Shown here: positions 1,811 to 12,415 of the stretch, piece after piece
Layout: every line of letters starts with the position of its first letter
Numbering within the stretch: the stretch's first letter is position 1
From: Candidatus Thorarchaeota archaeon
GTDB lineage: Archaea; Asgardarchaeota; Thorarchaeia; Thorarchaeales; Thorarchaeaceae
Assembly (NCBI GenBank): GCA_016839605.1
Contig: JAEOTX010000013.1
Location: 1-42,712, forward strand
DNA: 42,712 nt
Direction: 5' to 3'
Notes under the pieces: model-generated
Databases searched by the model: none
What the model saw: the letters and a program-made list of their open reading frames with translations, nothing else
What the model was told of the DNA's origin: nothing
Position numbers and translations under genes: made by a program

Positions 1811-3223
1811 ATGACTGACCAGGATGGACTACTATTGGAGAACGAGCCAGTGCAGACACAGGAGACGGAGTCAGCTTATCGCCGAGTCCTTGGACGAAAT
1901 GACTTCACTCGTCTTTGGGGTGGACAGCTCGTATCTAATGCAGGCACATCAATTAGCTATCTAGCACTTCTCTTCTTCGCCTTCGATATTTCAGGAACTG
2001 CCACTGCGATGGCTGTGCTCGCGATGGTAGAGGTGTTTCCACTCATTGCGTTTTCTGGACTTATTGGAGTGTACGTGGACAGATGGGACCGAAAGAAGAT
2101 CATGATAGGTGCTGACTTCTTCAGAGCTGCCCTCATCCTACTCTTCCCGTTTGTCACATTCTTCCCAGGTTATCTACCTCCGATAGTCTGGCTGTACATA
2201 CTGGCCTTCATCTATTCTACAGTAAATGCATTCTTCTATCCAGCACGTAGCGCGGCAATACCATCTCTTGTTGAGACCAAAGATCTTGTCACTGCAAACT
2301 CTCTTTCCACAATGACCTTCCAGATTATCTCCCTTGTCGTGACGCCTCTCGGTGGAGTTCTGGTTGCCCTTCTGAGACCTGATTACTTTCTTGCCTTCTT
2401 TATCGATGCTATGACCTTCATTCTTTCAGTAGTGTTTCTCTGGGGAATCAGAACCTCTCTCGTGCCCGAGAAAGTAGAAGATCGCGAGGCTTCTTTCGTT
2501 GATGAGATTATTGAAGGAGGTCGGATTATTCGCACTAGCGGATTGATGAGCTTCATCATTGGCATGTTCACGGTTCTGAGTCTAGGCTCAGGGATGGTCA
2601 ATGCTCTCGTGATTCCATTCTTTGAAGGCGAGTTGGGATTCGGCTCGATACAGTTTTCATTACTAATTAGTGGGGGTGCAATTTCTGGCCTTCTGTCAGC
2701 TATTTATCTTGGCAACAGGAGTCAATTGTCAAAGCCGCTCTTTCTCATAACGGCAGCAATGATTTGGGCTGGTGTTGTCATCCTTGGAATGTCACTCATA
2801 TCGGACTTTATCAGCGCCCTCTTGCTTTTCTCGTCAATCGGGCTAGTCAACGTGCTTCTTGGAGTGCCTGCCAACGCCTTGATTCAGGAGCTCATTGATC
2901 GAGACAAGCTTGGTCGGGTCTACTCATTCGAGAACATCATGATCAACATAGCTCTTGTCATGGGCATGGGTGTCGGAGGAGTGTGGGCTGATGCAGTTGG
3001 GTCTAGCCGACCGCCATTCTTCCTTGGAGGGCTTGTCATTGCATTGGTTGGTATTGTTGGAGCTCTACTTGTAGTAAGACTGCGTCTACATTCTCAGATT
3101 GATGAAATCAGATTTAAACGAGAAGCACAGATGATTGCGGCGACTCAGCTACAAAAGGAGGCTGTATTGGAGGACCTTCAAGAAATCGCAGATACAACTG
3201 ATGCTGATGCATCGGACTCATGA
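1811..3223 (+). CDS. MFS transporter (MFS_3/DHA3-like)
   Basis: About 12 hydrophobic segments, motif A GVYVDRWDRKK, FFYPARSAAIPSLV, second-half LGRVYS; start 1811 or 1793. Confidence 0.92.
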   Translation: MTDQDGLLLENEPVQTQETESAYRRVLGRNDFTRLWGGQLVSNAGTSISYLALLFFAFDISGTATAMAVLAMVEVFPLIAFSGLIGVYVDRWDRKKIMIGADFFRAALILLFPFVTFFPGYLPPIVWLYILAFIYSTVNAFFYPARSAAIPSLVETKDLVTANSLSTMTFQIISLVVTPLGGVLVALLRPDYFLAFFIDAMTFILSVVFLWGIRTSLVPEKVEDREASFVDEIIEGGRIIRTSGLMSFIIGMFTVLSLGSGMVNALVIPFFEGELGFGSIQFSLLISGGAISGLLSAIYLGNRSQLSKPLFLITAAMIWAGVVILGMSLISDFISALLLFSSIGLVNVLLGVPANALIQELIDRDKLGRVYSFENIMINIALVMGMGVGGVWADAVGSSRPPFFLGGLVIALVGIVGALLVVRLRLHSQIDEIRFKREAQMIAATQLQKEAVLEDLQEIADTTDADASDS

Positions 3224-3724
3224 GTCATTTGCAACGAGCCGCTTGAAGAAGGCCTCGTAATCTATCTCGAAACCCACTCTTGTTCCCGGCCGCACGCGAG
3301 TACCTGTGTCGTCAAACTCTACATAACGTTGTGTGGCCAGTTCCTTGAGATCTCCACGCACACCTCTTCTTGTCTTTCGTCTGAATTCTCGCACTCGATC
3401 TATTGACACCCATCCGCCTTCCTGATAGGAGAGTGTGATAACTACAAGAAGTGTGGCTGCGAGTCGATCTGGCAGAACTGATTCCTCTAGCAGCTGCTCA
3501 CTTCGAACCGTTGTGTCTAGATAGAAGACATGGTCGATTGGATTATGCCTGATCATTAGTCCGACCTCTGATAGTCTTCTGTCAAGGGCGCCTAGTCGCC
3601 GGAATAGGATGTGTCTTCCCGTGTCTTCGGGTAGACCAAGTGCGCCGAGCATGTCCTCAACCCCTGCCCCAATCGGATTTCCTGATCGAGTGAGAAGCCT
3701 CATGAGGATTATGTACTCGTTCAC
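3218..3724 (-). CDS. Kite protein (ScpB/Nse1/Nse3-like tandem winged helix), SMC accessory subunit
   Basis: 168 aa with two wHTH-like halves (LGALDRRLSEVGLMIR...FYL; LAATLLVVITLSY...LKELATQRYVE); GTG start overlaps the kleisin stop (GTGA); last gene of the SMC operon. Confidence 0.7.
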   Translation of the reverse strand: MNEYIILMRLLTRSGNPIGAGVEDMLGALGLPEDTGRHILFRRLGALDRRLSEVGLMIRHNPIDHVFYLDTTVRSEQLLEESVLPDRLAATLLVVITLSYQEGGWVSIDRVREFRRKTRRGVRGDLKELATQRYVEFDDTGTRVRPGTRVGFEIDYEAFFKRLVANDS

Positions 3725-4365
3725 GCTCCAGCCTCCCTTACAACTGTTCTATCCTCAAGATTATACTGGAGGGTGCCCTTTGATATCAGAATCACAAGAT
3801 AGAGAAAACGTTTCAGAAATTCTTCGAAATCGTTGTTAAGTATGAGATCATCAACAGGAATCTTCTCACCTGCAGGAACACCCGCTCCAAACTCTTGAGC
3901 ATCCTCCATTAGAATCGCGTCCTCTGACGGGAATGTGTAGCCGTTCGGTAATGGCGCAATGGCTGGGATTTTATCTTCGGGCGGTTCCATTCCAAGTTTG
4001 TCAATGAATTCCTTGATTCTTACTGATGAGCGGTCAAGCGTGGAATGATCTAGGTGCACTATCCCGATAGGGTGGTGATATGCTATCATTCCTGCCAAAT
4101 CTCGTGCAGATAGCGTCTTTAGCTTCGCCACATAGAGTTCTGGAGATGCAAGGACGCGAGCGAGTTCTTGAACCTTGTTCACCTTGGCTCCCAATACTTC
4201 ATTCAGCATCTCGTCAATGTCCAGTCTACTACTGACTTCAGCTGTGAGCCTCTGGAGCTTCTTGTACTCAGGAGTCAACTGTATCTCAAGTGGGTCGACT
4301 TTGCCAGAACGGACAGACTCAGCAATCCTGAGGATGGCTTCTGTAAAAGATTCGATTCCGCTCAT
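3721..4365 (-). CDS. Kleisin (ScpA-like) subunit of the SMC complex
   Basis: N-terminal ILRIAESVRSGKVDPLEIQL resembles the archaeal ScpA G.iDPw.I motif; C-terminal IPVDDLI...FLKRFLYLVILISKGTLQY resembles the kleisin C-terminal wHTH; GAGGTG SD precedes ATG 4365. Confidence 0.78.
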   Translation of the reverse strand: MSGIESFTEAILRIAESVRSGKVDPLEIQLTPEYKKLQRLTAEVSSRLDIDEMLNEVLGAKVNKVQELARVLASPELYVAKLKTLSARDLAGMIAYHHPIGIVHLDHSTLDRSSVRIKEFIDKLGMEPPEDKIPAIAPLPNGYTFPSEDAILMEDAQEFGAGVPAGEKIPVDDLILNNDFEEFLKRFLYLVILISKGTLQYNLEDRTVVREAGA

Positions 4366-4376
4366 CAGAATACACC

Positions 4377-7300
4377 TCACTGCCCAGAAAACTTAGGACT
4401 CTCCACTATTACTGAAGGGTCTGTTCCGCCAGGAGAGACCACGCCAATTCTCTTGTCAGCGTGTTTCAATAGATGTGTGCTTTTGGCAGGTGTGAAGAGG
4501 ATAAATTGACTCCTGCGAGAAGCATCATAGAGGAGTCTGCTTACCGACTCTGTATTAGTCGCATCCAGAAAGATGTCTACTTCATCCAAGGCATATGTAG
4601 GAGCAGGATTGAATCTTTGGAGAGCTAGTATCAATGCTATTGCAATCAGTGATCGTTCTCCTCCAGAGCCTTGACTTATCTCCCCAAACTCGTCACCTTT
4701 TATTCGAGACTTGAACTCCACACCATAGATTCCATCCCTGAGAGTAAGTGTGAACTTAGCTCGACCTGCAAACTCTGCGGTTGCCAGAATCTTGTTCACA
4801 TTCTTCTCCACTTTTGACAGAGTTGCGTTCATTCCATTATGATACTGATCACGAATGTGCTTCACAGTGGCTTCAGCCTCAAAGAGTTCAACTTTCAGAG
4901 TTTCCACCTGAACTATCAACTCTGAAAGCCGATCTTTGAGTCTAGACTCGGTATGCGCTACGCTCTCGGAAACATCCTCATAGTCATCAAGGAGGTGTCG
5001 AACGCGAATCAGCTCTTGCCGCGCAGTTTCAAGTGGTCTTATTTTGTCTGGTCTGATTGCCTTGTCAAGTTGCTGCAGAAGCCGCTTCTCTTCTTCTTCC
5101 ATGTTTCGCATCTGTTTTTGAGCCTGTAGGACCAATAGCCGATTGTCCTTAATCATGAGATTCAGTTCTACAAGTCGTTCGCCAACTGTCCGAAGTATCT
5201 CATTGATTCCACCAAGTTCTTCTTTCAGCCTGACTTCTTTGTCGTTGGTTTCCAACAGACCTAGCTCGAGGGTCTCGATCAATTCAGTAATGGAGGCTGC
5301 TTCACCCTTAGAATTCTTCATCTCTTCTCTAAGTTCTTTGACTTGTCCTGAAAGCATTCCAATGTTCTCATTGTGCGACTTCAATTCTGCTCTTCGTCGG
5401 TCTTCATCTCGCTCTGTTGCGTGGAGACCGCTCTCGACCTTTGAGAGATCACCTTGGAGTCTTCTTTGCTTCAGTCGAACTGCTGATCTTTGTCCAGCCA
5501 ACCTACTTCTCTCAGGAGGTTGCGAGCTGTCTAACTTTCTCAATTCTCTCTGAGCTTTTCCAATCTCTATCTGTAGGTTCTTTAATTCATCATCAAGGCC
5601 AACAATCTTCTCTTGGACATCTGGTATGCTATCCGAGAGTTTCTTCCTTCGCTCCCAAGTGCTGCTCCAACGTGTCATGTGCCCCTGCAGATCGAGGACT
5701 TCTTCCCTTTCATCGGTTGCTTTCTCGAGTTTGTCCATGACCTCTGTGACTTCCTTTCGAGAAATCGTTAGCTCCCTTTCGAGTTTCAGTAGACGTGTCT
5801 GGAGCGGTGCTGTGGACACTAATCCAGAGGGTTCCTTCCTTGGATGACTTATGACGCTCTTTTGAGTCACGTCTACAACAGACCCATCTCTTGAGACTGC
5901 CATGAGTCCAGCTCGGCTTGCTACACGTGAGGCAACTCTACCAGTGCTAGTGATGACGATATCTCCGAAGGCCTTCTTCAGGAGTTCTTTTTCATCATCA
6001 TCTAGTGCTAGGATATCCCATAGCCATCCTTCAATACCCTTTCCTGAGGGAAGGCTCGGATTTGACGTATCAGCCTCTTCTTTGAGCATGATAATTGGAG
6101 ATGGTGCACCCGACTTGTCTCTAAGCTTCTGTATCAGTGCGTAATCTGTCTGTTCACGCACAATGAATGCAAAGGGAAGATTACCTGAGAAGACCGCCTC
6201 CAGGGCATTTGAGAACTCGTCACTCTTCATTAACAACTCCACAAGCGGCCCGGTGACTGAGGTCAGTTTATGTTCAGTAATCGCTTCTTTCAGGTCTCTT
6301 ACTTCACTAGGGATGCGTTCTGAGGATTCGGAGAGCTTCACCTTGATTTCATCGATTTCTTTCTGAAGCTGCGATACTAGACTTGAGTTCTGAAACCTTT
6401 GTTCATTGAGTGTTGTTATCTCTCTCTCAAGCTGACCCTTTCGTCTAGCAAGTTCCTTTTCATCAGTATCCTCCAGAGCTTCCCATACATGAGCCCATTT
6501 GCTATCAATGCTCTGTAGCTCTGCCTCTTCGTTCTGCAGCCGCTCCTGATAGCTTCTCAACAGTAAGTCTTTCTTCTCAATATCACTCTGAAGTGATTTG
6601 TAGGCAATATATGCATCAGTGCGAACCGCATTCCATTCCTCAAAAGACGAGAGCTCTTGCTCGATTCTGTCTAGGTCAATCTCGATAGATTCTATCTCTG
6701 TACTAATCTCTCTCTTCTCCTCGAGATACTGCTCTTTATTGGCCGCTGCCCTCTCCAGCTCAGCTTTCGCTGCAATCTTCTCACGTTCTACTTTCTTTAC
6801 CTCGCGTTCTAGTTGACTGATCTCATTCACTGTGCCCTTGCTCTCATCCTCTAGCTTCTGCATCCGCCGTCTTTCTTCATCTATTCGTGCTTCTATCCCT
6901 CCGATCTCTCGCTGGAGTGAGTCGAGGCGAGATTCAAGTTTTGATGCTGCTTTTTGATTCTCCTCCATTTGACTTTCCAGTGACTTTTGCTCATCAAGAA
7001 CATCCACTAGACCTGATTCTCTATTCTCAATCTCATCTCTGACCTCTACCATTCTGGTACTGATGTCGTCAAGAGTTGCCCACTTTACCTCAATCTCAAG
7101 CTCTTTCTCCTCATTCTTGAGTGCCCGTTTCTTCTCTAGCCTTGTAAGGTCATGTTTTAGCAGCTCAAGCTCTCTCTCAACTACGCGTGACTCATCGAGT
7201 GCCGCCTGCAGCTTTTGCTGGCTTTGCGCAACTTCAGTTTCTTGAACTGCAATACGGTCCCGAACTTCGCTAAGCCCGGTGCCTTCCTCAACTAGGCGAC

Positions 7301-7745
7301 GAACCTCTATAGGATTCATCTCACGCAGTGCATTGATGCGTTCTTGAGGCATGAATACCAGTGTGTTGTCAATATCAAGACCAAGTGAACTGACAAGCTG
7401 CCTTAGTTCTGCTGCTTTCACACGTTTTCCATCTATGTAGGCCTTAGGTATTCCGTCACGATCAATCCGGCGCAGAAACTTGTGTCTGATTCCTCCATTG
7501 TTCACACTAATCTCAACTTCAGCAGATGTGGCTCCATGCCTGACAAAGTCACTCCATTTCGAGTAGCGCTCTTCTCTTTGATTTGATCCCAGTGCGAACT
7601 TGATTGCGTGAAACACTGAGGTCTTTCCAGAGCCATTTGGGCCAATGATGACAGTGAGTCCAGGATCAAAGCTCACAACTCCCTCATAAAACGAGAGAAA
7701 ATTCTTGAGCCTGACTGAGCCAATGTGGACCTTGGCCTTGCTCAC
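4377..7745 (-). CDS. SMC-family ATPase, SMC5/6-like type
   Basis: Walker A GPNGSGKT, Q-loop FMPQE, long coiled coils, central hinge (GPLVELL...ALEAVF...AFIV...D), signature SGGERS, Walker B/D-loop ALDEVDIFLD, QFILFTP; GGAGG SD before the GTG start. Confidence 0.95.
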   Translation of the reverse strand: MSKAKVHIGSVRLKNFLSFYEGVVSFDPGLTVIIGPNGSGKTSVFHAIKFALGSNQREERYSKWSDFVRHGATSAEVEISVNNGGIRHKFLRRIDRDGIPKAYIDGKRVKAAELRQLVSSLGLDIDNTLVFMPQERINALREMNPIEVRRLVEEGTGLSEVRDRIAVQETEVAQSQQKLQAALDESRVVERELELLKHDLTRLEKKRALKNEEKELEIEVKWATLDDISTRMVEVRDEIENRESGLVDVLDEQKSLESQMEENQKAASKLESRLDSLQREIGGIEARIDEERRRMQKLEDESKGTVNEISQLEREVKKVEREKIAAKAELERAAANKEQYLEEKREISTEIESIEIDLDRIEQELSSFEEWNAVRTDAYIAYKSLQSDIEKKDLLLRSYQERLQNEEAELQSIDSKWAHVWEALEDTDEKELARRKGQLEREITTLNEQRFQNSSLVSQLQKEIDEIKVKLSESSERIPSEVRDLKEAITEHKLTSVTGPLVELLMKSDEFSNALEAVFSGNLPFAFIVREQTDYALIQKLRDKSGAPSPIIMLKEEADTSNPSLPSGKGIEGWLWDILALDDDEKELLKKAFGDIVITSTGRVASRVASRAGLMAVSRDGSVVDVTQKSVISHPRKEPSGLVSTAPLQTRLLKLERELTISRKEVTEVMDKLEKATDEREEVLDLQGHMTRWSSTWERRKKLSDSIPDVQEKIVGLDDELKNLQIEIGKAQRELRKLDSSQPPERSRLAGQRSAVRLKQRRLQGDLSKVESGLHATERDEDRRRAELKSHNENIGMLSGQVKELREEMKNSKGEAASITELIETLELGLLETNDKEVRLKEELGGINEILRTVGERLVELNLMIKDNRLLVLQAQKQMRNMEEEEKRLLQQLDKAIRPDKIRPLETARQELIRVRHLLDDYEDVSESVAHTESRLKDRLSELIVQVETLKVELFEAEATVKHIRDQYHNGMNATLSKVEKNVNKILATAEFAGRAKFTLTLRDGIYGVEFKSRIKGDEFGEISQGSGGERSLIAIALILALQRFNPAPTYALDEVDIFLDATNTESVSRLLYDASRRSQFILFTPAKSTHLLKHADKRIGVVSPGGTDPSVIVESPKFSGQ

Positions 7746-7758
7746 GTGTCTATTCCTC

Positions 7759-8829
7759 CTACCTTCCCATTATTCTCCGAAGTCTGTCATTGTTCTTCTT
7801 TGCCCTCAACAGTCTCGTGAGTCGATCCTCTGGTGTTCCTTTCATCAAGAATGGATACTCGCTTAGATATTCAAGGTCCTTTGAAGACAAAGGTAGACTC
7901 GAATTGAGTGCCTCTATCACTCTTTGAGTTTCAGCGTAGTTCTCTCCAACAGCTAAGAGATAGAGTTGGTCCAGAAACTCGTCAGGATATTCAGTTTCTA
8001 CGGAACTAATGCTGGGGACTTTCAATCCTTGAATTCGGGTTACCATGTGCTCAAATGCCCGCTTTCTTCCCACAGGGAGAACTCCGCTATCAGCAATCAT
8101 CTGCTCCAGCTTTTCTCGAGGGATTTGACCTTCCTCTTGCTTCTGGCATAAGACTAGAGAAACGGCAAGGTGCTGTGTTTCGCTAAAACTCCATCCTTCA
8201 CTGAGTTCTGCAGCGTCTGTTGGACTGAGGTCCTCTCTGTCCTTGAAGGCGGCCTCAAAGAGGCGAACTCGGTCATCTAAGGTAGCAGATTCTGAGACGA
8301 ATGTATGATTGAAGACAGACAAGAGTTCAGCATCCATTAGTTGCGGCGTTGATGTAGAAGCTACAAGAAGCACCTCATCATTGACCCAACTGGTTCCTTC
8401 TGCTTCAATTCCTAGCAAAGCTGATTCTCGGCTCTGTGCGGGAGCAATATACTCAATTTTCTCAAGGTATAGAATTGAAGGGGCATTCCTCTTTGCAAAT
8501 TCGAACCAGAAACTAATGGATTCTCGTGTGCTATCAGGCCGTCCAAGAACTCTCTCCATTCTGGGACGCACAATATTGATTGGAATTTCCAGAGAGAGAT
8601 ATTGCACAAAAGCCTCAAAATCAGTGCCCACTCCACCAATCAATAGCACCCTTCCGCCAAAACTTAGGCCTTTCAACCGTAAATCGTCGCCGATCTTAGC
8701 TAATCGGATTATTGACTCATGGAAAGACTTGGCATTCTCTCTGACTGAATATTGGCCCAGACGGTCAGCATCTAGATCCTCGGGCCTTGACAGAATGACA
8801 GTGTCTGCGTAGATATCATCTTCTCCCAC
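7759..8829 (-). CDS. Degenerate (likely inactive) classical AAA-domain protein
   Basis: GGRVLLIGGVGTDFE (Walker A position, no GKT), FEFAKRNAPSILYLEKIEYIAP (Walker B position, DE replaced by EK), VLLVASTSTPQLMDAELL (sensor I/SRH, no Arg finger), GWSFSET lid; start reassigned to GTG 8829 behind a GAGGT SD (track gives 8958). Confidence 0.75.
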   Translation of the reverse strand: MGEDDIYADTVILSRPEDLDADRLGQYSVRENAKSFHESIIRLAKIGDDLRLKGLSFGGRVLLIGGVGTDFEAFVQYLSLEIPINIVRPRMERVLGRPDSTRESISFWFEFAKRNAPSILYLEKIEYIAPAQSRESALLGIEAEGTSWVNDEVLLVASTSTPQLMDAELLSVFNHTFVSESATLDDRVRLFEAAFKDREDLSPTDAAELSEGWSFSETQHLAVSLVLCQKQEEGQIPREKLEQMIADSGVLPVGRKRAFEHMVTRIQGLKVPSISSVETEYPDEFLDQLYLLAVGENYAETQRVIEALNSSLPLSSKDLEYLSEYPFLMKGTPEDRLTRLLRAKKNNDRLRRIMGR

Positions 8830-8969
8830 AGTATTACCTCTCCGGCAGGCTTGCCAGACCTGACAATTTCTGCAAATAATGTCTTCGAAGTCAACATGAT
8901 TCCGCGCCGTCCCATCGCGCTTATACGCAAGGATTAAGGCATGTCTTGCGACATCCATCTTGATTCGTC
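8830..8969. promoter_or_regulatory. Divergent promoter region shared by the SMC operon and the MoxR-vWA operon
   Basis: 140-bp gap between head-to-head starts; TATA-like TATAAG (minus strand, 8925-8920) and ATTAAG (plus strand, 8933-8938). Confidence 0.4.
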
Positions 8970-10682
8970 ATGAGCACCACGACAAGTAGCCTCCGTGATA
9001 AAGTCTGGAATGCGATTACAACTGTTGAGAGTCGAGGTCTCTTCGTTCATTCCACAGATCTCCCCATTCGGTTCAAGGAGAGAACACGGACTAGTGACAA
9101 GGTAGTAACACGACGTATACCTCAGATTGTTGGTGCCTGCGTTCTTAACACACTCGTGCCTCGTTCTGCAATGCTACTAGTGGGCGGACATGGAGGCGGC
9201 AAGACAACGCTAGTCAAACTTCTTGGGAGGATGATGACCGGGAAGAGTCTAGATGAGATCGATGATGGTATGCTCAGAGGCCACCCACAGCTTACTGAGG
9301 AAAAGATGGTGGCTACTCTTCGTCCTGGACCGCTCATGAAAGACGGTGTAGAGGTAGTAGTTTGGAGGAAGTTCGTGACAGGCTTTTGGAAGATGATTGA
9401 TGAGGTCAATAGGCTAACACCGCATGCCCAGAATATTCTCCTATCGATGCTCGCTGAAGGTGAGCTAAAATACTACGATGAGGTCAAGAAGTGTGAGGAG
9501 TATTGTCTATTCGCCACTCTCAACCCATCTGATGCTGGAACCTTTGATTTGGCTCCTCCTTTTCTGGATAGGTTCGGCATCGCTGTCCCCATAACTATGC
9601 CAACTATCAATGATCTTGAACTTATTCTCACAACACGAGACGAACGACTCTTTGGATATGATGAGTTGTGGCAGGTCCCAGCTATTCTCAGTGAAGAAGA
9701 CCTTCTCACAATCTGGAATCTAGCTGATAAGGTGCCTGTTTCAGCCAGAGCATCAGAATACATGCGCTCGTTGGTAAGGGAGTTTGGCGCTTGCATTCGC
9801 ACAGATAAGAGTCAGACTCATGAGCTAACTGTCGAAACTGGTCTGTGTGATGGCTGTCATTTCAATACAGCAAAGAGTGTCTGCAACAAGGTCATTATCC
9901 CTCTTAGTGTGCGAGCTGTGAAAGATCTAAATCGGTATACAAAGGCTGCGGCTTGGCTAGTTGGTGCTGGTGAGGTGGGTGTCGAGATAGTGAAATCACT
10001 AGCGCCACTTGTATTCTGGCATAGAACGCGTTTTACAGGTGACGAAATGGAACGGTCTCCTTTCTACGGTGATCGGTTCGCTTTCGCAAGTCAACTGGTA
10101 GAGCTTGCATCAACTAGGTTTGCTCAGCGAGAGGCAGCAATAGAGCTCATGGAGAAACTGAGGACTGGAACTGCTGATAAGGAGGCTCTCGATGAGCTTA
10201 AGGAAATGGGCAAGAGCGACCTCCTAGTCAAGATTGACTATGTGAACTTCGCAAAAGAGCTCAAGAAGAAGCGGTATGTGAAAATGATTCAGAGCATAGA
10301 GAAGGGTGTCAAAGACAAGGATGTGAGCAAGCTAACCGAAGTACACCTTGAGTTAATGAAAGACACTGACTTTCCCAACAGGAGTGTTCTGCTGAATAAG
10401 GTATCAGAATCTCTCCATAGACTTACGCTTTCCCAGTTCACCCTCACATTTGAACAATGGCAGGATCTTTGGACTGTAATCAGTCTGCGATATCCCCCAA
10501 TGACGCCCATTTTGAAAGAAACCCTTACACCCCCTAAGCGAAAGGTTGTTCGCACAGATGGACTCACTTTAGTCATCTATGTCACTGGGGATACCCCAGA
10601 ATCATCAGTCTTTCTCGAGATTTCGGGTGGTACTGACGCTTTAGAAATGAAAAAGGAGATTGAGTCAAACCTTAGCGAATAG
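8970..10682 (+). CDS. MoxR-like AAA+ ATPase with C-terminal extension
   Basis: Walker A GGHGGGKTT, Walker B MIDEVNRL, QNILLSML.EG, ATLNP..AGTF.L.PPFLDRF, lid SVRA; extra Cys cluster (C...CDGC...C). Confidence 0.9.
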   Translation: MSTTTSSLRDKVWNAITTVESRGLFVHSTDLPIRFKERTRTSDKVVTRRIPQIVGACVLNTLVPRSAMLLVGGHGGGKTTLVKLLGRMMTGKSLDEIDDGMLRGHPQLTEEKMVATLRPGPLMKDGVEVVVWRKFVTGFWKMIDEVNRLTPHAQNILLSMLAEGELKYYDEVKKCEEYCLFATLNPSDAGTFDLAPPFLDRFGIAVPITMPTINDLELILTTRDERLFGYDELWQVPAILSEEDLLTIWNLADKVPVSARASEYMRSLVREFGACIRTDKSQTHELTVETGLCDGCHFNTAKSVCNKVIIPLSVRAVKDLNRYTKAAAWLVGAGEVGVEIVKSLAPLVFWHRTRFTGDEMERSPFYGDRFAFASQLVELASTRFAQREAAIELMEKLRTGTADKEALDELKEMGKSDLLVKIDYVNFAKELKKKRYVKMIQSIEKGVKDKDVSKLTEVHLELMKDTDFPNRSVLLNKVSESLHRLTLSQFTLTFEQWQDLWTVISLRYPPMTPILKETLTPPKRKVVRTDGLTLVIYVTGDTPESSVFLEISGGTDALEMKKEIESNLSE

Positions 10683-10696
10683 GAGATTGCAGATAG

Positions 10697-12415
10697 TTGA
10701 CGGAAGCTCGTAGCTTGAGCAGAGGCGAATCATTGGGTCAGGTGGCCCGCCGCGCATGGGAAAGCGCTCTTTCAGACTTCTACTATCCACCGTTGCCTGA
10801 CGTTCACGTGGAACACATTGAGAATGCTAGCAGCTACTTCTATATTGAAACGGATGACTGGACTGTTCATCTCAACACTGCTGGTGTCCCACCACATCTT
10901 GATATGAACGAAGCAGAGCCCTATCTAAGGTCAGTCTGTCATCATGAGATTCAACACTACTTGGTCTGCCCCTATGATGCAGTGATGAATGGAATGATGT
11001 TTGCTGCAGCAAGACGTCATGTAAGCGACTCAACTGCATTGTTTGTGTGTAACCTGTTTGCTGACCTTGTAGTTGATTCTGCACTTCTTAAGAGATACAC
11101 CCGAATCACTCATTCTCGAATCACATCGAACATCTTTGGCTCTTCAATGATGGGCGAATCTCATAGTCCCCTGTGGCTATTGATTGTGTCCTGTTACAGA
11201 GCAATGTGGGGTTTTCCACTGCCATCAACCGTCAGTATAGACGAGGATACATACCAGGCTGCAGAGTGCATAATATCGATTAGCCGCAAATACATTGACA
11301 ATGAGAGAAGATGGCCAAAGGCTGTTGAGGAGATTGCAAAGATTGTAGCTGAATGGCAGCCTGATCCTGAAGAGCCCCTTGCAGGCTGCGGAGGACCTGC
11401 TGAGCCAGGTGAAGGAACAGATCCAGGAGCTGTTCTTATTCCTCTGGATGTGGATGCAGTAATGGGAAATCCTGTCGAGATCCGAAATGGTGATCGTGCG
11501 AAACGATGCATGACTGATACTGAGGACGAGGACCTCGAGAAGGAAATGGAGCGGCTAGCGGTTGAGGTGGAGCAAAGGGGTGGGGACCTCAGAGATTTGG
11601 AAGCTGTCTATCTGGTTGCTGGAATTGGTTCGAAACGGAAGCAATGGATTAGGTTCTGGTACAGGGCAAAGGTCCGCGGCCTCCTGAGGTTTGATGTGCG
11701 AGAGAGGAGAATTGCGGGCTCCACACCACTATCCATCCAAGTATGGCGCTTAGGAGATCCCCTTGAAGAGCTTGATGTTGTGCAAAGCCTACAAGCCTTT
11801 CCGATCCTAGTACCCAATATGTCTACTAGGCGTTGGTTCAAGACAGAGATGTATGGGGAGTTTGAATCTGAATCTCTTCCTGATCTGTTACTTGTGATTG
11901 ACTCCAGCGGCTCCATGACATGGTCGATGCGTGGCAAGACCGTATCTGGGCCATATCATACTGCGTTGGTTTCTGCATTTGCTGCAATGGATGTAGCGTT
12001 AAGAAAAGGGAGTAGAGTTGCGGCTATCAACTTCTCTGATGGCACTCGTGTATGTGAATGGACGAGAGAACGCTCAACCGTTGAGAAAATACTTCTTGCA
12101 TATCAGGGTGGAGGTACAGTTGGACCGATTAGGAAGATTTCAGATGCTTGTGATTCAGCTGGTTCAGGAGTAATGGTCCTCCTGATAACTGATGCAGAGA
12201 TAGCAAATTGGGGCCGTCTTGTCAAATCTATCGCCAAACTGACTCGTAGAGGACACAAGTATTTCATGTTTCATATGGAGTCGCCCGGTTATGAGATGGA
12301 AGACTCTATTCACGGTGCTCTTACTAAAGCGGGAGCTCATGCTATTCCGGTTGAGTCCGTGAAAGACTTGCCTGGTCTGGTCGTGAGAGAGGTTCGAAGA
12401 GTTTATGGGTTATAG
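10697..12415 (+). CDS. HExxH metallopeptidase-like domain + C-terminal vWA domain (DUF2201-like MoxR partner)
   Basis: HHEIQHY (HExxH) followed by NLFADLVVD; MIDAS DSSGS, GGT and ITDA motifs; AGGAG SD before the TTG start, 14 bp after the MoxR stop. Confidence 0.85.
   Translation: MTEARSLSRGESLGQVARRAWESALSDFYYPPLPDVHVEHIENASSYFYIETDDWTVHLNTAGVPPHLDMNEAEPYLRSVCHHEIQHYLVCPYDAVMNGMMFAAARRHVSDSTALFVCNLFADLVVDSALLKRYTRITHSRITSNIFGSSMMGESHSPLWLLIVSCYRAMWGFPLPSTVSIDEDTYQAAECIISISRKYIDNERRWPKAVEEIAKIVAEWQPDPEEPLAGCGGPAEPGEGTDPGAVLIPLDVDAVMGNPVEIRNGDRAKRCMTDTEDEDLEKEMERLAVEVEQRGGDLRDLEAVYLVAGIGSKRKQWIRFWYRAKVRGLLRFDVRERRIAGSTPLSIQVWRLGDPLEELDVVQSLQAFPILVPNMSTRRWFKTEMYGEFESESLPDLLLVIDSSGSMTWSMRGKTVSGPYHTALVSAFAAMDVALRKGSRVAAINFSDGTRVCEWTRERSTVEKILLAYQGGGTVGPIRKISDACDSAGSGVMVLLITDAEIANWGRLVKSIAKLTRRGHKYFMFHMESPGYEMEDSIHGALTKAGAHAIPVESVKDLPGLVVREVRRVYGL

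Follow-up and report, generated by a model that had tools for sequence, protein, structure and literature searches.

The closest described relatives of the gene analysed here are the archaeal SMC (structural maintenance of chromosomes) proteins that Yoshinaga and Inagaki (2021; PMC8665677) defined as "SMC5/6-related aSMC", a set of 80 homologues mostly from TACK and in some cases from Asgard archaea, with 44 genomes also encoding a canonical SMC. Van Hooff, Raas, Tromer and Eme (bioRxiv 10.1101/2024.01.07.573240) described genes 495-497 of P. syntrophicum as an SMC5/6-related SMC, an Nse4-related kleisin and an Nse1-3-related kite, and listed a Thorarchaeaceae genome with an Nse1-3-related kite. 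We analysed a stretch of 42,712 nucleotides (nt) of a Candidatus Thorarchaeota archaeon (assembly GCA_016839605.1, contig JAEOTX010000013.1, positions 1 to 42,712; below, the window), in which positions 4377..7745 of the minus strand encode an SMC paralogue, P0001. Asgard SMC-kleisin-kite operons of its type are classed as SMC5/6-related in the published phylogenies (PMC8665677; bioRxiv 10.1101/2024.01.07.573240). P0001 is probably the SMC of a second, non-canonical SMC-kleisin-kite complex and belongs to an ancient, Asgard-wide paralogue clade, the one that the literature calls "SMC5/6-related". It is a published lineage recognised in a new genome, an annotation rather than a discovery. An earlier note, made from the letters of the window without database searches, had described the gene as a homodimeric archaeal relative of eukaryotic SMC5/6; its call on the gene was largely right, and its comparative half held only in part.

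P0001 is one open frame of 1122 amino acids (aa) in the order N-head, coiled coil, hinge, coiled coil and C-head; its start codon is GTG, with GGAGG about 9 nt upstream. The ATPase motifs are all intact, namely Walker A, the Q-loop Gln, the signature Ser-Gly-Gly, the Walker B Asp-Glu and the D-loop Asp. The Pfam model SMC_N matches at 142 bits and reaches both ends of the protein, the SMC_hinge model matches weakly (30.8 bits), and the two models of canonical prokaryotic Smc stay under their cut-offs (TIGR02169 at 286 bits versus 729, TIGR02168 at 252 versus 567). Homologues at 50-96% identity are thorarchaeotal. P0001 is an SMC proper, with an ABC-type head, a globular hinge fold and adjacent kleisin and kite genes. 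In databases the gene is labelled "AAA family ATPase" or "chromosome segregation protein"; it can now be annotated as an Asgard SMC5/6-related SMC.

The genome is a metagenome-assembled genome of 3.08 Mb in 259 contigs, 80% complete. A separate canonical smc, the presence of which the earlier note had proposed to check, was found on contig C106: it scores 857 bits on TIGR02169, reads LVLQGE, MSGGEKT, FDEIDAALD and QFIVVSLR at the head motifs, has a hinge with GDLVERSGLITGG, and is followed by scpA (a weak Pfam match) and scpB (Pfam, 114 bits). The profile search of all open reading frames (ORFs) of the assembly returned two SMCs and one Rad50-like protein (contig C28), and no third SMC. P0001 is the second SMC of this organism, beside a complete canonical Smc-ScpAB.

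The gene is embedded in an operon on the minus strand. The kleisin-like partner P0002 (219 aa, 3721..4380), assigned by Asgard synteny and profile matches, overlaps the SMC stop by 4 nt, and the kite partner P0003 (168 aa, 3218..3724), a tandem winged-helix protein assigned by fold and profile, overlaps the kleisin stop by another 4 nt, the SMC gene being translationally coupled to both. The operon's first gene lies 13 nt ahead of the SMC start and encodes a protein of 399 aa (7759..8958) with a CDC48-type fold and a Walker A without Lys, which we call the pseudo-AAA. The order pseudo-AAA, SMC, a gene of about 215 aa and a gene of about 170 aa is kept in every Asgard locus fetched, down to 23% SMC identity. 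The kleisin family profile finds weak matches (E 0.03 and 0.075) to the C-terminal winged helix of Pyrococcus ScpA co-crystallised with Smc heads. The AlphaFold2 (AF2) model of the kite has a mean predicted local distance difference test score (pLDDT) of 83.8, and its top Foldseek matches are essentially only kites, ScpB first and then MukE, MAGE-G1/Nse3, JetB and Nse1/Nse3. The profile search of the PDB with the kite returned generic winged helices only, and Pfam and NCBIfam gave nothing usable for either partner: the ScpA and ScpB models of Pfam do not recognise them, and its Nse4, Nse1 and MAGE models find no match in them.

The comparison of head motifs was made on an alignment of the clade of P0001 with canonical SMCs, eukaryotic SMC5, one SMC6-like protein and the short SMC-like proteins of Bathyarchaeia and Nitrososphaerota (below, Bathy-type). 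All motifs quoted in the earlier note (FMPQE, QGSGGERS, LDEVDIFLD, QFILFTP, AFIV and SRDG) are present when the coordinates are re-translated. On the minus strand, Walker A (GPNGSGKT) occupies 7620..7643, the Q-loop FMPQE with Q134 lies at 7341..7355, the signature QGSGGERS at 4650..4673, Walker B with the D-loop (LDEVDIFLD) at 4563..4589 and the switch region QFILFTP, in which Pro replaces the His or Leu of the H-loop, at 4488..4508. The profile alignment A3, built from 17 diverse clade members across the Asgard phylum (23-67% identity), has invariant G35, N37, G40 and K41 in Walker A, and likewise Q134, S1027-G-G1029, D1054-E1055, D1061, Q1080 and P1086. The motif pattern is thus not due to chance, since these positions do not vary in the 17 sequences.

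Not every one of these motifs discriminates. The switch reads Q-h-h-h-h-T-P throughout the clade, QYFLITP (TP or SP) in SMC5 and QYI-ITP in the Bathy-type. The motif was located in 108 of the 113 high-scoring canonical representatives; none of these 108 has the Pro, and they read [ST]L or [ST]H instead. The earlier note was right in taking this Pro as an SMC5/6-type trait and wrong in contrasting it with His: the canonical archaeal state is Leu, as in Pyrococcus (QFIVITLR) and in the organism's own canonical Smc, and His is the state of bacterial SMCs and Rad50. The Q-loop comparison also stood in part. SMC5 of animals, plants, fungi and Dictyostelium reads FLPQD(R/K) where canonical SMCs read xLQG, as had been proposed, but the PQE of P0001 is confined to Thorarchaeia, other members of the clade having PQG or SQG. 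The character kept across the clade is the lead of the loop, a DN placed 7 residues ahead of the Gln (DN-x7-Q) and one residue longer than in canonical SMCs, which have (E/D)GY-N; it is common to the clade, SMC5, the SMC6-like protein and the Bathy-type. These three groups also share with the clade an [RK] in the FI(R/K)xG motif. The signature and the D-loop, which the note had read as SMC5/6-type and Smc6-like, lose this meaning. SGGERS is found in canonical bacterial-type SMCs as well, and P0001 is without the 2-residue insertion seen ahead of SGGE in SMC5 and the Bathy-type (QSGGE). In canonical archaeal SMCs the D-loop Asp is often followed by Phe or His (DE[VI]DMFLD, DEIDAHLD; in general DE-x-D-[MA]-[FH]-LD). 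The proposed mixture of Smc5 and Smc6 traits therefore leans partly on motifs that do not discriminate. P0001 does share three structural characters with SMC5/6, in the switch (TP), in the lead of the Q-loop and in the glycine-less hinge. Of the five signatures, these same three set the clade apart from canonical Smc. This short list of truly separating characters is a by-product of the analysis, and it comes with a caution, as SGGERS and the D-loop Phe do not set the clade apart from canonical Smc.

The hinge domain (5796..6272, minus strand), with AFIV and SRDG inside it, lacks the G-x6-G-x3-GG motif, as the earlier note had observed, and contains no Cys. When the hinge is aligned with canonical Asgard hinges, which read G-x6-SG-x3-GG (the exceptions being a paralogue of 1155 aa, CAN_L067, and the forms of 1485 aa), only the first Gly is retained in the clade. 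Among 150 representatives scanned for GX5-6[G]GX3GG no clade member has the motif, versus about 90 of 113 canonical ones. Alt et al. (2017) reported that Smc5 lacks the motif (GX6GX3GG) and that Smc6 has no more than part of it. The structure prediction that the note had asked for gave an SMC hinge fold (AF2, residues 470-672, pLDDT 87.6), and Foldseek with this model retrieves SMC hinges of all kinds at E 1e-7, those of cohesin, T. maritima and Pyrococcus first and S. pombe Smc5/6 at rank 24. As modelled, P0001 has a genuine SMC hinge fold without the glycine motif. Two copies of the hinge are predicted to pair symmetrically via strands 546-555 and 628-636, with an ipSAE of 0.68 versus 0.01 for the best control, agreement between runs in at least 81% of contacts and a partner pLDDT of at least 76. 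In calibration the ipSAE mark was reached by 20 of the 30 proteins solved as one-chain pairs and by 1 of the 23 solved as single chains. The predicted self-pairing may reflect likeness to known hinges, because SMC hinge dimers are already among the solved structures. The homodimer claimed in the earlier note agrees with this prediction and with the single copy of the gene in the assembly; against it weighs the 80% completeness of the assembly, which makes a second copy possible.

The clade to which P0001 belongs is sharply bounded. When the A3 profile was searched versus 1.84 billion cluster representatives, members scored 472 bits or more and formed about 37 clusters at 50% identity; then came a gap to 383 bits, and the proteins from 383 bits down have two- to fourfold higher scores on a profile of canonical Smc. 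Members come from Thor-, Loki-, Odin-, Hod- and Promethearchaeota, Lokiarchaeum ossiferum among them; a match from Helarchaeota (P0271) falls into the canonical clade instead. A match is present in 85 of the 85 genomes of the window's own family and in 133 of 135 of another Asgard family. In a tree of Asgard SMCs the clade of P0001 (support 99) and the canonical clade (99) are cleanly apart, with the extra paralogues of some Asgard lineages on the canonical side.

Several members and neighbours of these two clades are worth recording. P0165 and P0205 (1155-1161 aa), nested in the Asgard clade, no longer have the Gln of the Q-loop, carry SSGE and DELVMHLD, and may be an ATPase-degenerate offshoot. 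One Asgard genome (G005, locus L049; family f5, 96% complete) has the SMC5/6-related type only and no canonical smc above the TIGR02169 cut-off. Another Asgard lineage (G114) has a third SMC operon (L067:1456-4923, minus strand), the SMC of which has 1155 aa, scores 657 bits on TIGR02169 and lies on the canonical side of the tree; with a gene of 438 aa upstream and genes of 221 and 184 aa downstream this operon echoes the four-gene layout. Family f22 (L086, L087 and L088) has an extra SMC of about 1485 aa, also on the canonical side, whose middle region aligns with no hinge.

The position of the clade relative to other SMCs was addressed with a maximum-likelihood tree of head domains (62 sequences, 329 columns, LG+C20+F+G4 with posterior mean site frequencies, PMSF; ultrafast bootstrap and SH-aLRT support). 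It represents one alignment method and head domains only, the coiled coil and hinge being left out. Canonical SMCs form a clade at 99/100 with P0001 outside, so that the robust placement within canonical Smc, which the earlier note had taken as speaking against its claim, was not found. The Asgard clade with P0001 has a support of 95/37, which becomes 99/93 once the Odin sequence is removed. A third group (99/96) unites the Freyarchaeum protein P0197, P0247, the Bathy-type, SMC5 and the SMC6-like protein, and the clade of P0001 is not in it. When only heads are compared, SMC5 and the SMC6-like protein attach to the short Bathyarchaeia-type proteins and not to the full-length Asgard clade. The head-domain tree places P0001 outside the canonical clade and does not distinguish the order of the three big clades. 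The sister relation of the clade of P0001 to the group of SMC5/6 and the Bathy-type is, as far as head sequences can tell, neither supported nor rejected.

The Bathy-type proteins deserve a short description. At four loci (L089, L095, L096 and L097) their length is 617-690 aa, some being of about 980 aa, and most of them have no Pfam hinge; they show SMC6-like SPFRAVDEYDVHMD and ITP, and kleisin-like and kite-like genes lie next to them. In the tree no archaeal proteins come closer to SMC5 and the SMC6-like protein. In all four neighbourhoods fetched, genes of about 253-280 aa and then of 181-203 aa follow the SMC.

A number of observations weigh against a special kinship of P0001 with SMC5/6. 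The tree was built without SMC1-4, MukB and JetC, has one SMC6-like sequence, truncated at its C-terminus, and is rooted on a single long Rad50-like outgroup. When the clade of P0001 is forced together with the group of SMC5/6 and the Bathy-type, the cost is 2.05 log-likelihood units (lnL; p 0.434 in the approximately unbiased, AU, test), and when it is forced together with the canonical clade the cost is 0.70 lnL (AU p 0.472). The best PDB matches of P0001 are Pyrococcus Smc (110 bits) and Smc2 (100 bits), with Smc5 at 65 and Smc6 at 38.5 bits; for the C-terminal motif block the values are 60 bits for Pyrococcus Smc versus 33 for Smc5 and 29 for Smc6. P0001 is devoid of the characters that SMC5/6 share with the Bathy-type: ahead of Walker B it has no PFR-x-x-DE, its D-loop is not followed by MD, and its SGGE is not preceded by the 2-residue insertion. 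It reads APTYALDEVDIFLD where SMC5/6 have PFR-x-x-DE-x-x-x-MD. The Foldseek results add that the hinge fold is generic rather than specifically Smc5/6-like, and that the kite fold, which matches all kite families, is not specifically Nse1/3-like. When solved structures are searched with the full protein, with residues 1-200 (the N-head), with residues 1022-1112 (the C-motif block) or with the family profile, canonical SMC or SMC1-4 come out ahead of Smc5/6 each time. Accordingly the motif block is not specially SMC5/6-like. SMC5/6 evolve fast, and for this reason we rejected raw similarity as a phylogenetic argument.

These points would fit an old, Asgard-specific duplicate of canonical Smc-ScpAB, in which the SMC5/6-like residues (the switch Pro and the loss of the hinge glycines) were gained independently and no special kinship with SMC5/6 exists. 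We regard such a duplicate as unlikely; on this reading the true archaeal kin of SMC5/6 would be the short proteins of the Bathyarchaeia and Freyarchaeum type. It has in its favour the small cost of joining the clade to canonical Smc, the nesting of SMC5 and the SMC6-like protein with the Bathy-type, P0197 and P0247 to the exclusion of P0001, a C-terminal motif block about 50% identical to that of Pyrococcus Smc, the missing PFR, MD and QSGGE characters, and a kleisin profile that still detects ScpA. Yet under it three changes must have arisen in parallel, in the switch (TP), in the Q-loop (the indel) and in the hinge (loss of the glycines), and the partner proteins point the other way: in hhalign the kleisin family matches the kleisins of Bathy-type operons at Prob 94.9 (E 4e-8) versus 79.8 for Asgard ScpA, and the kite family matches Bathy-operon kites at Prob 90 versus 20 for ScpB. 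The Bathy-operon kleisin and kite families themselves detect neither ScpA nor ScpB in hhalign. Profiles of the SMC go in the same direction. With full-length profiles of the clade and of canonical Smc, the SMC5 protein P0381 scores 174 versus 72 and the SMC6-like protein P0379 scores 126 versus 70. With profiles of heads only, SMC5 scores 199 on the Bathy-type, 168 on the clade of P0001 and 126 on canonical Smc, and the clade of P0001 scores 194 on the Bathy-type and 181 on canonical Smc. Within the genome, P0001 reaches 105.8 bits on the SMC5 profile versus 78.9 for the canonical Smc, and 189.6 versus 147.0 on the Bathy-type profile. A further obstacle to the duplicate is that published trees put the Asgard operon of this type with SMC5/6.

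The complete genome of Freyarchaeum deiterrae also speaks for kinship. Its only non-canonical SMC, P0197 (835 aa), lies in an operon of pseudo-AAA, SMC, kleisin and kite, the partners of which match the family profiles of the P0001 operon at 112, 27 and 76 bits. This positional orthologue of P0001 branches at the base of the group of SMC5/6 and the Bathy-type (AU p 0.196 for placing it with the clade of P0001 instead). It links both groups, since it has the same operon layout and still branches with the SMC5/6 group. Because profile scores, partner profiles and the Freyarchaeum operon agree, a single "SMC5/6-related" super-clade, in which the full-length Asgard branch evolves slowly, seems the more economical reading, and we lean towards it. 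The kinship with SMC5/6 claimed in the earlier note stands insofar as P0001 lies outside canonical Smc, shares three characters and profile preferences with SMC5/6 and has partners nearer to those of Bathy-type operons than to ScpA and ScpB, while its placement with SMC5/6 in the tree is not settled. There is a minor chance that the Asgard clade is either a third ancient SMC lineage or a slow-evolving SMC5/6 stem which keeps the pre-duplication state. If it were a third lineage, the SMC5/6 stem would be of the short Bathyarchaeia and Freyarchaeum type, and the archaeal ancestor of eukaryotes would have had three kinds of SMC complex, one of which was lost. If it were the slow-evolving stem, a dedicated pseudo-AAA subunit would be ancestral and would have been replaced in eukaryotes.

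Two other identities were considered and rejected. A defence-type SMC that restricts foreign DNA (Wadjet JetC/MksB or Lamassu LmuB-like) is very improbable. PADLOC models do match the ATPase head (mad3 at 115 bits, LmuB at 85 and JetC at about 32), one member of the kite family matches DUF4194 (MksE/JetB) at E 0.0018, and the kite fold also resembles JetB and MukE. But the PADLOC matches cover the generic head only, and the JetC score compares with 286 bits on TIGR02169; the three neighbours have no PADLOC match, no nuclease of the JetD/MksG type is present, and the gene is a core, syntenic one across the phylum, unlike a patchy defence island. With matches at the level of the head and none in the partners the defence reading was discarded, and P0001 is, in line with the earlier note, not MksB/JetC-like (MukB and JetC not being in the tree). 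That note had further grouped P0001, wrongly, with coalescin ClsN. ClsN and Sph make up the ASRP family, whose members carry a zinc hook and are set apart from canonical SMC as well as from the SMC5/6-related type. The NCBIfam model of ASRP (NF045487) does give P0001 125.7 bits, and Rad50 models give 40-70 bits on the N-terminal head, yet these scores are far under the cut-offs (300 and 700-1087, respectively). ASRP and Rad50 dimerise by a zinc hook, while P0001 has a folded, Cys-free SMC hinge; a separate Rad50-like gene exists on contig C28, and the neighbours of P0001 are a kleisin and a kite, not Mre11. The fold of the hinge and the family scores together refute a ClsN/Sph or Rad50-like repair ATPase, which is practically out of the question.

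If P0001 is indeed the SMC of a second complex, its working can be outlined by comparison with Smc-ScpAB and Smc5/6. Two copies of P0001 would pair via the hinge to form a homodimer, the kleisin would connect one head's neck to the other head's cap, and the kleisin would carry a dimer of kites. ATP-driven engagement of the heads would then clamp and translocate DNA, as in Smc-ScpAB and Smc5/6. Since this organism also retains a complete canonical Smc-ScpAB, its two complexes most likely serve different purposes. By analogy we favour for the P0001 complex a role in repair, replication stress or the handling of DNA junctions rather than in bulk chromosome folding. This biology could be tested in cultured Asgard archaea, as Lokiarchaeum ossiferum has a clade member and the operon of P. 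syntrophicum has been reported by van Hooff et al.

The upstream gene of the operon belongs to a family whose profile matches CDC48/p97 in the PDB at E of about 1e-39, with Lys lost from Walker A and the acidic residue lost from Walker B. Its position is kept in every Asgard locus examined, Freyarchaeum included; operons of Bathyarchaeia have no pseudo-AAA. The conserved pseudo-AAA is not mentioned in Yoshinaga and Inagaki 2021 (PMC8665677) or in van Hooff et al. (bioRxiv 10.1101/2024.01.07.573240), where "AAA" occurs in the supplements only within taxon names. A C-terminal helical domain of about 100 aa is conserved in the family (LDQLYLMAV...KAKK..DRL) and is also seen at L090:3625-5004 and in the upstream ORFs of L018-L061. 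Beyond the pseudo-AAA gene, two large ORFs of 570 and 572 aa (8970-12415, plus strand) run divergently from the operon.

Compared with the known systems, our analysis adds the discriminating characters, the finding that the tree fits more than one position relative to the Bathy-type, and the operon link through Freyarchaeum. P0001 agrees with the published archaeal SMC5/6-related SMC in being a second SMC beside canonical Smc, in having its own kleisin-kite operon, in the proposed homodimer and in its Asgard occurrence; it differs in that the head tree separates the Asgard clade, with full arms and a full hinge, from the Bathyarchaeia-type that nests with SMC5 and SMC6. With the short proteins of Bathyarchaeia and Nitrososphaerota it shares the TP switch, DN-x7-Q and related kleisin and kite families, while these proteins have much shorter arms, mostly no Pfam hinge, SPFRAVDEYDVHMD and no upstream pseudo-AAA. 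The eukaryotic Smc5/Smc6 resemble P0001 in a TP or SP switch in place of His or Leu, in a hinge without GX6GX3GG and in having kites rather than hawks as partners, and the FLPQD of SMC5 with its upstream DN is similar to the Q-loop of P0001. Contrastingly, P0001 is one gene, and thus a homodimer and not a heterodimer would be expected; its arm length is comparable, its pairwise similarity to Smc5/Smc6 is lower than to canonical SMCs, and no Nse2, Nse5 or Nse6 was found for its complex. Canonical archaeal Smc-ScpAB has the same architecture, the same order of smc, kleisin and kite and a closely similar C-terminal motif block, and canonical archaeal Smc and P0001 both have P-x-Y before Walker B and LD after the D-loop. 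What distinguishes P0001 from it are the switch Pro, the longer Q-loop lead, the glycine-less hinge and a place outside the canonical clade.

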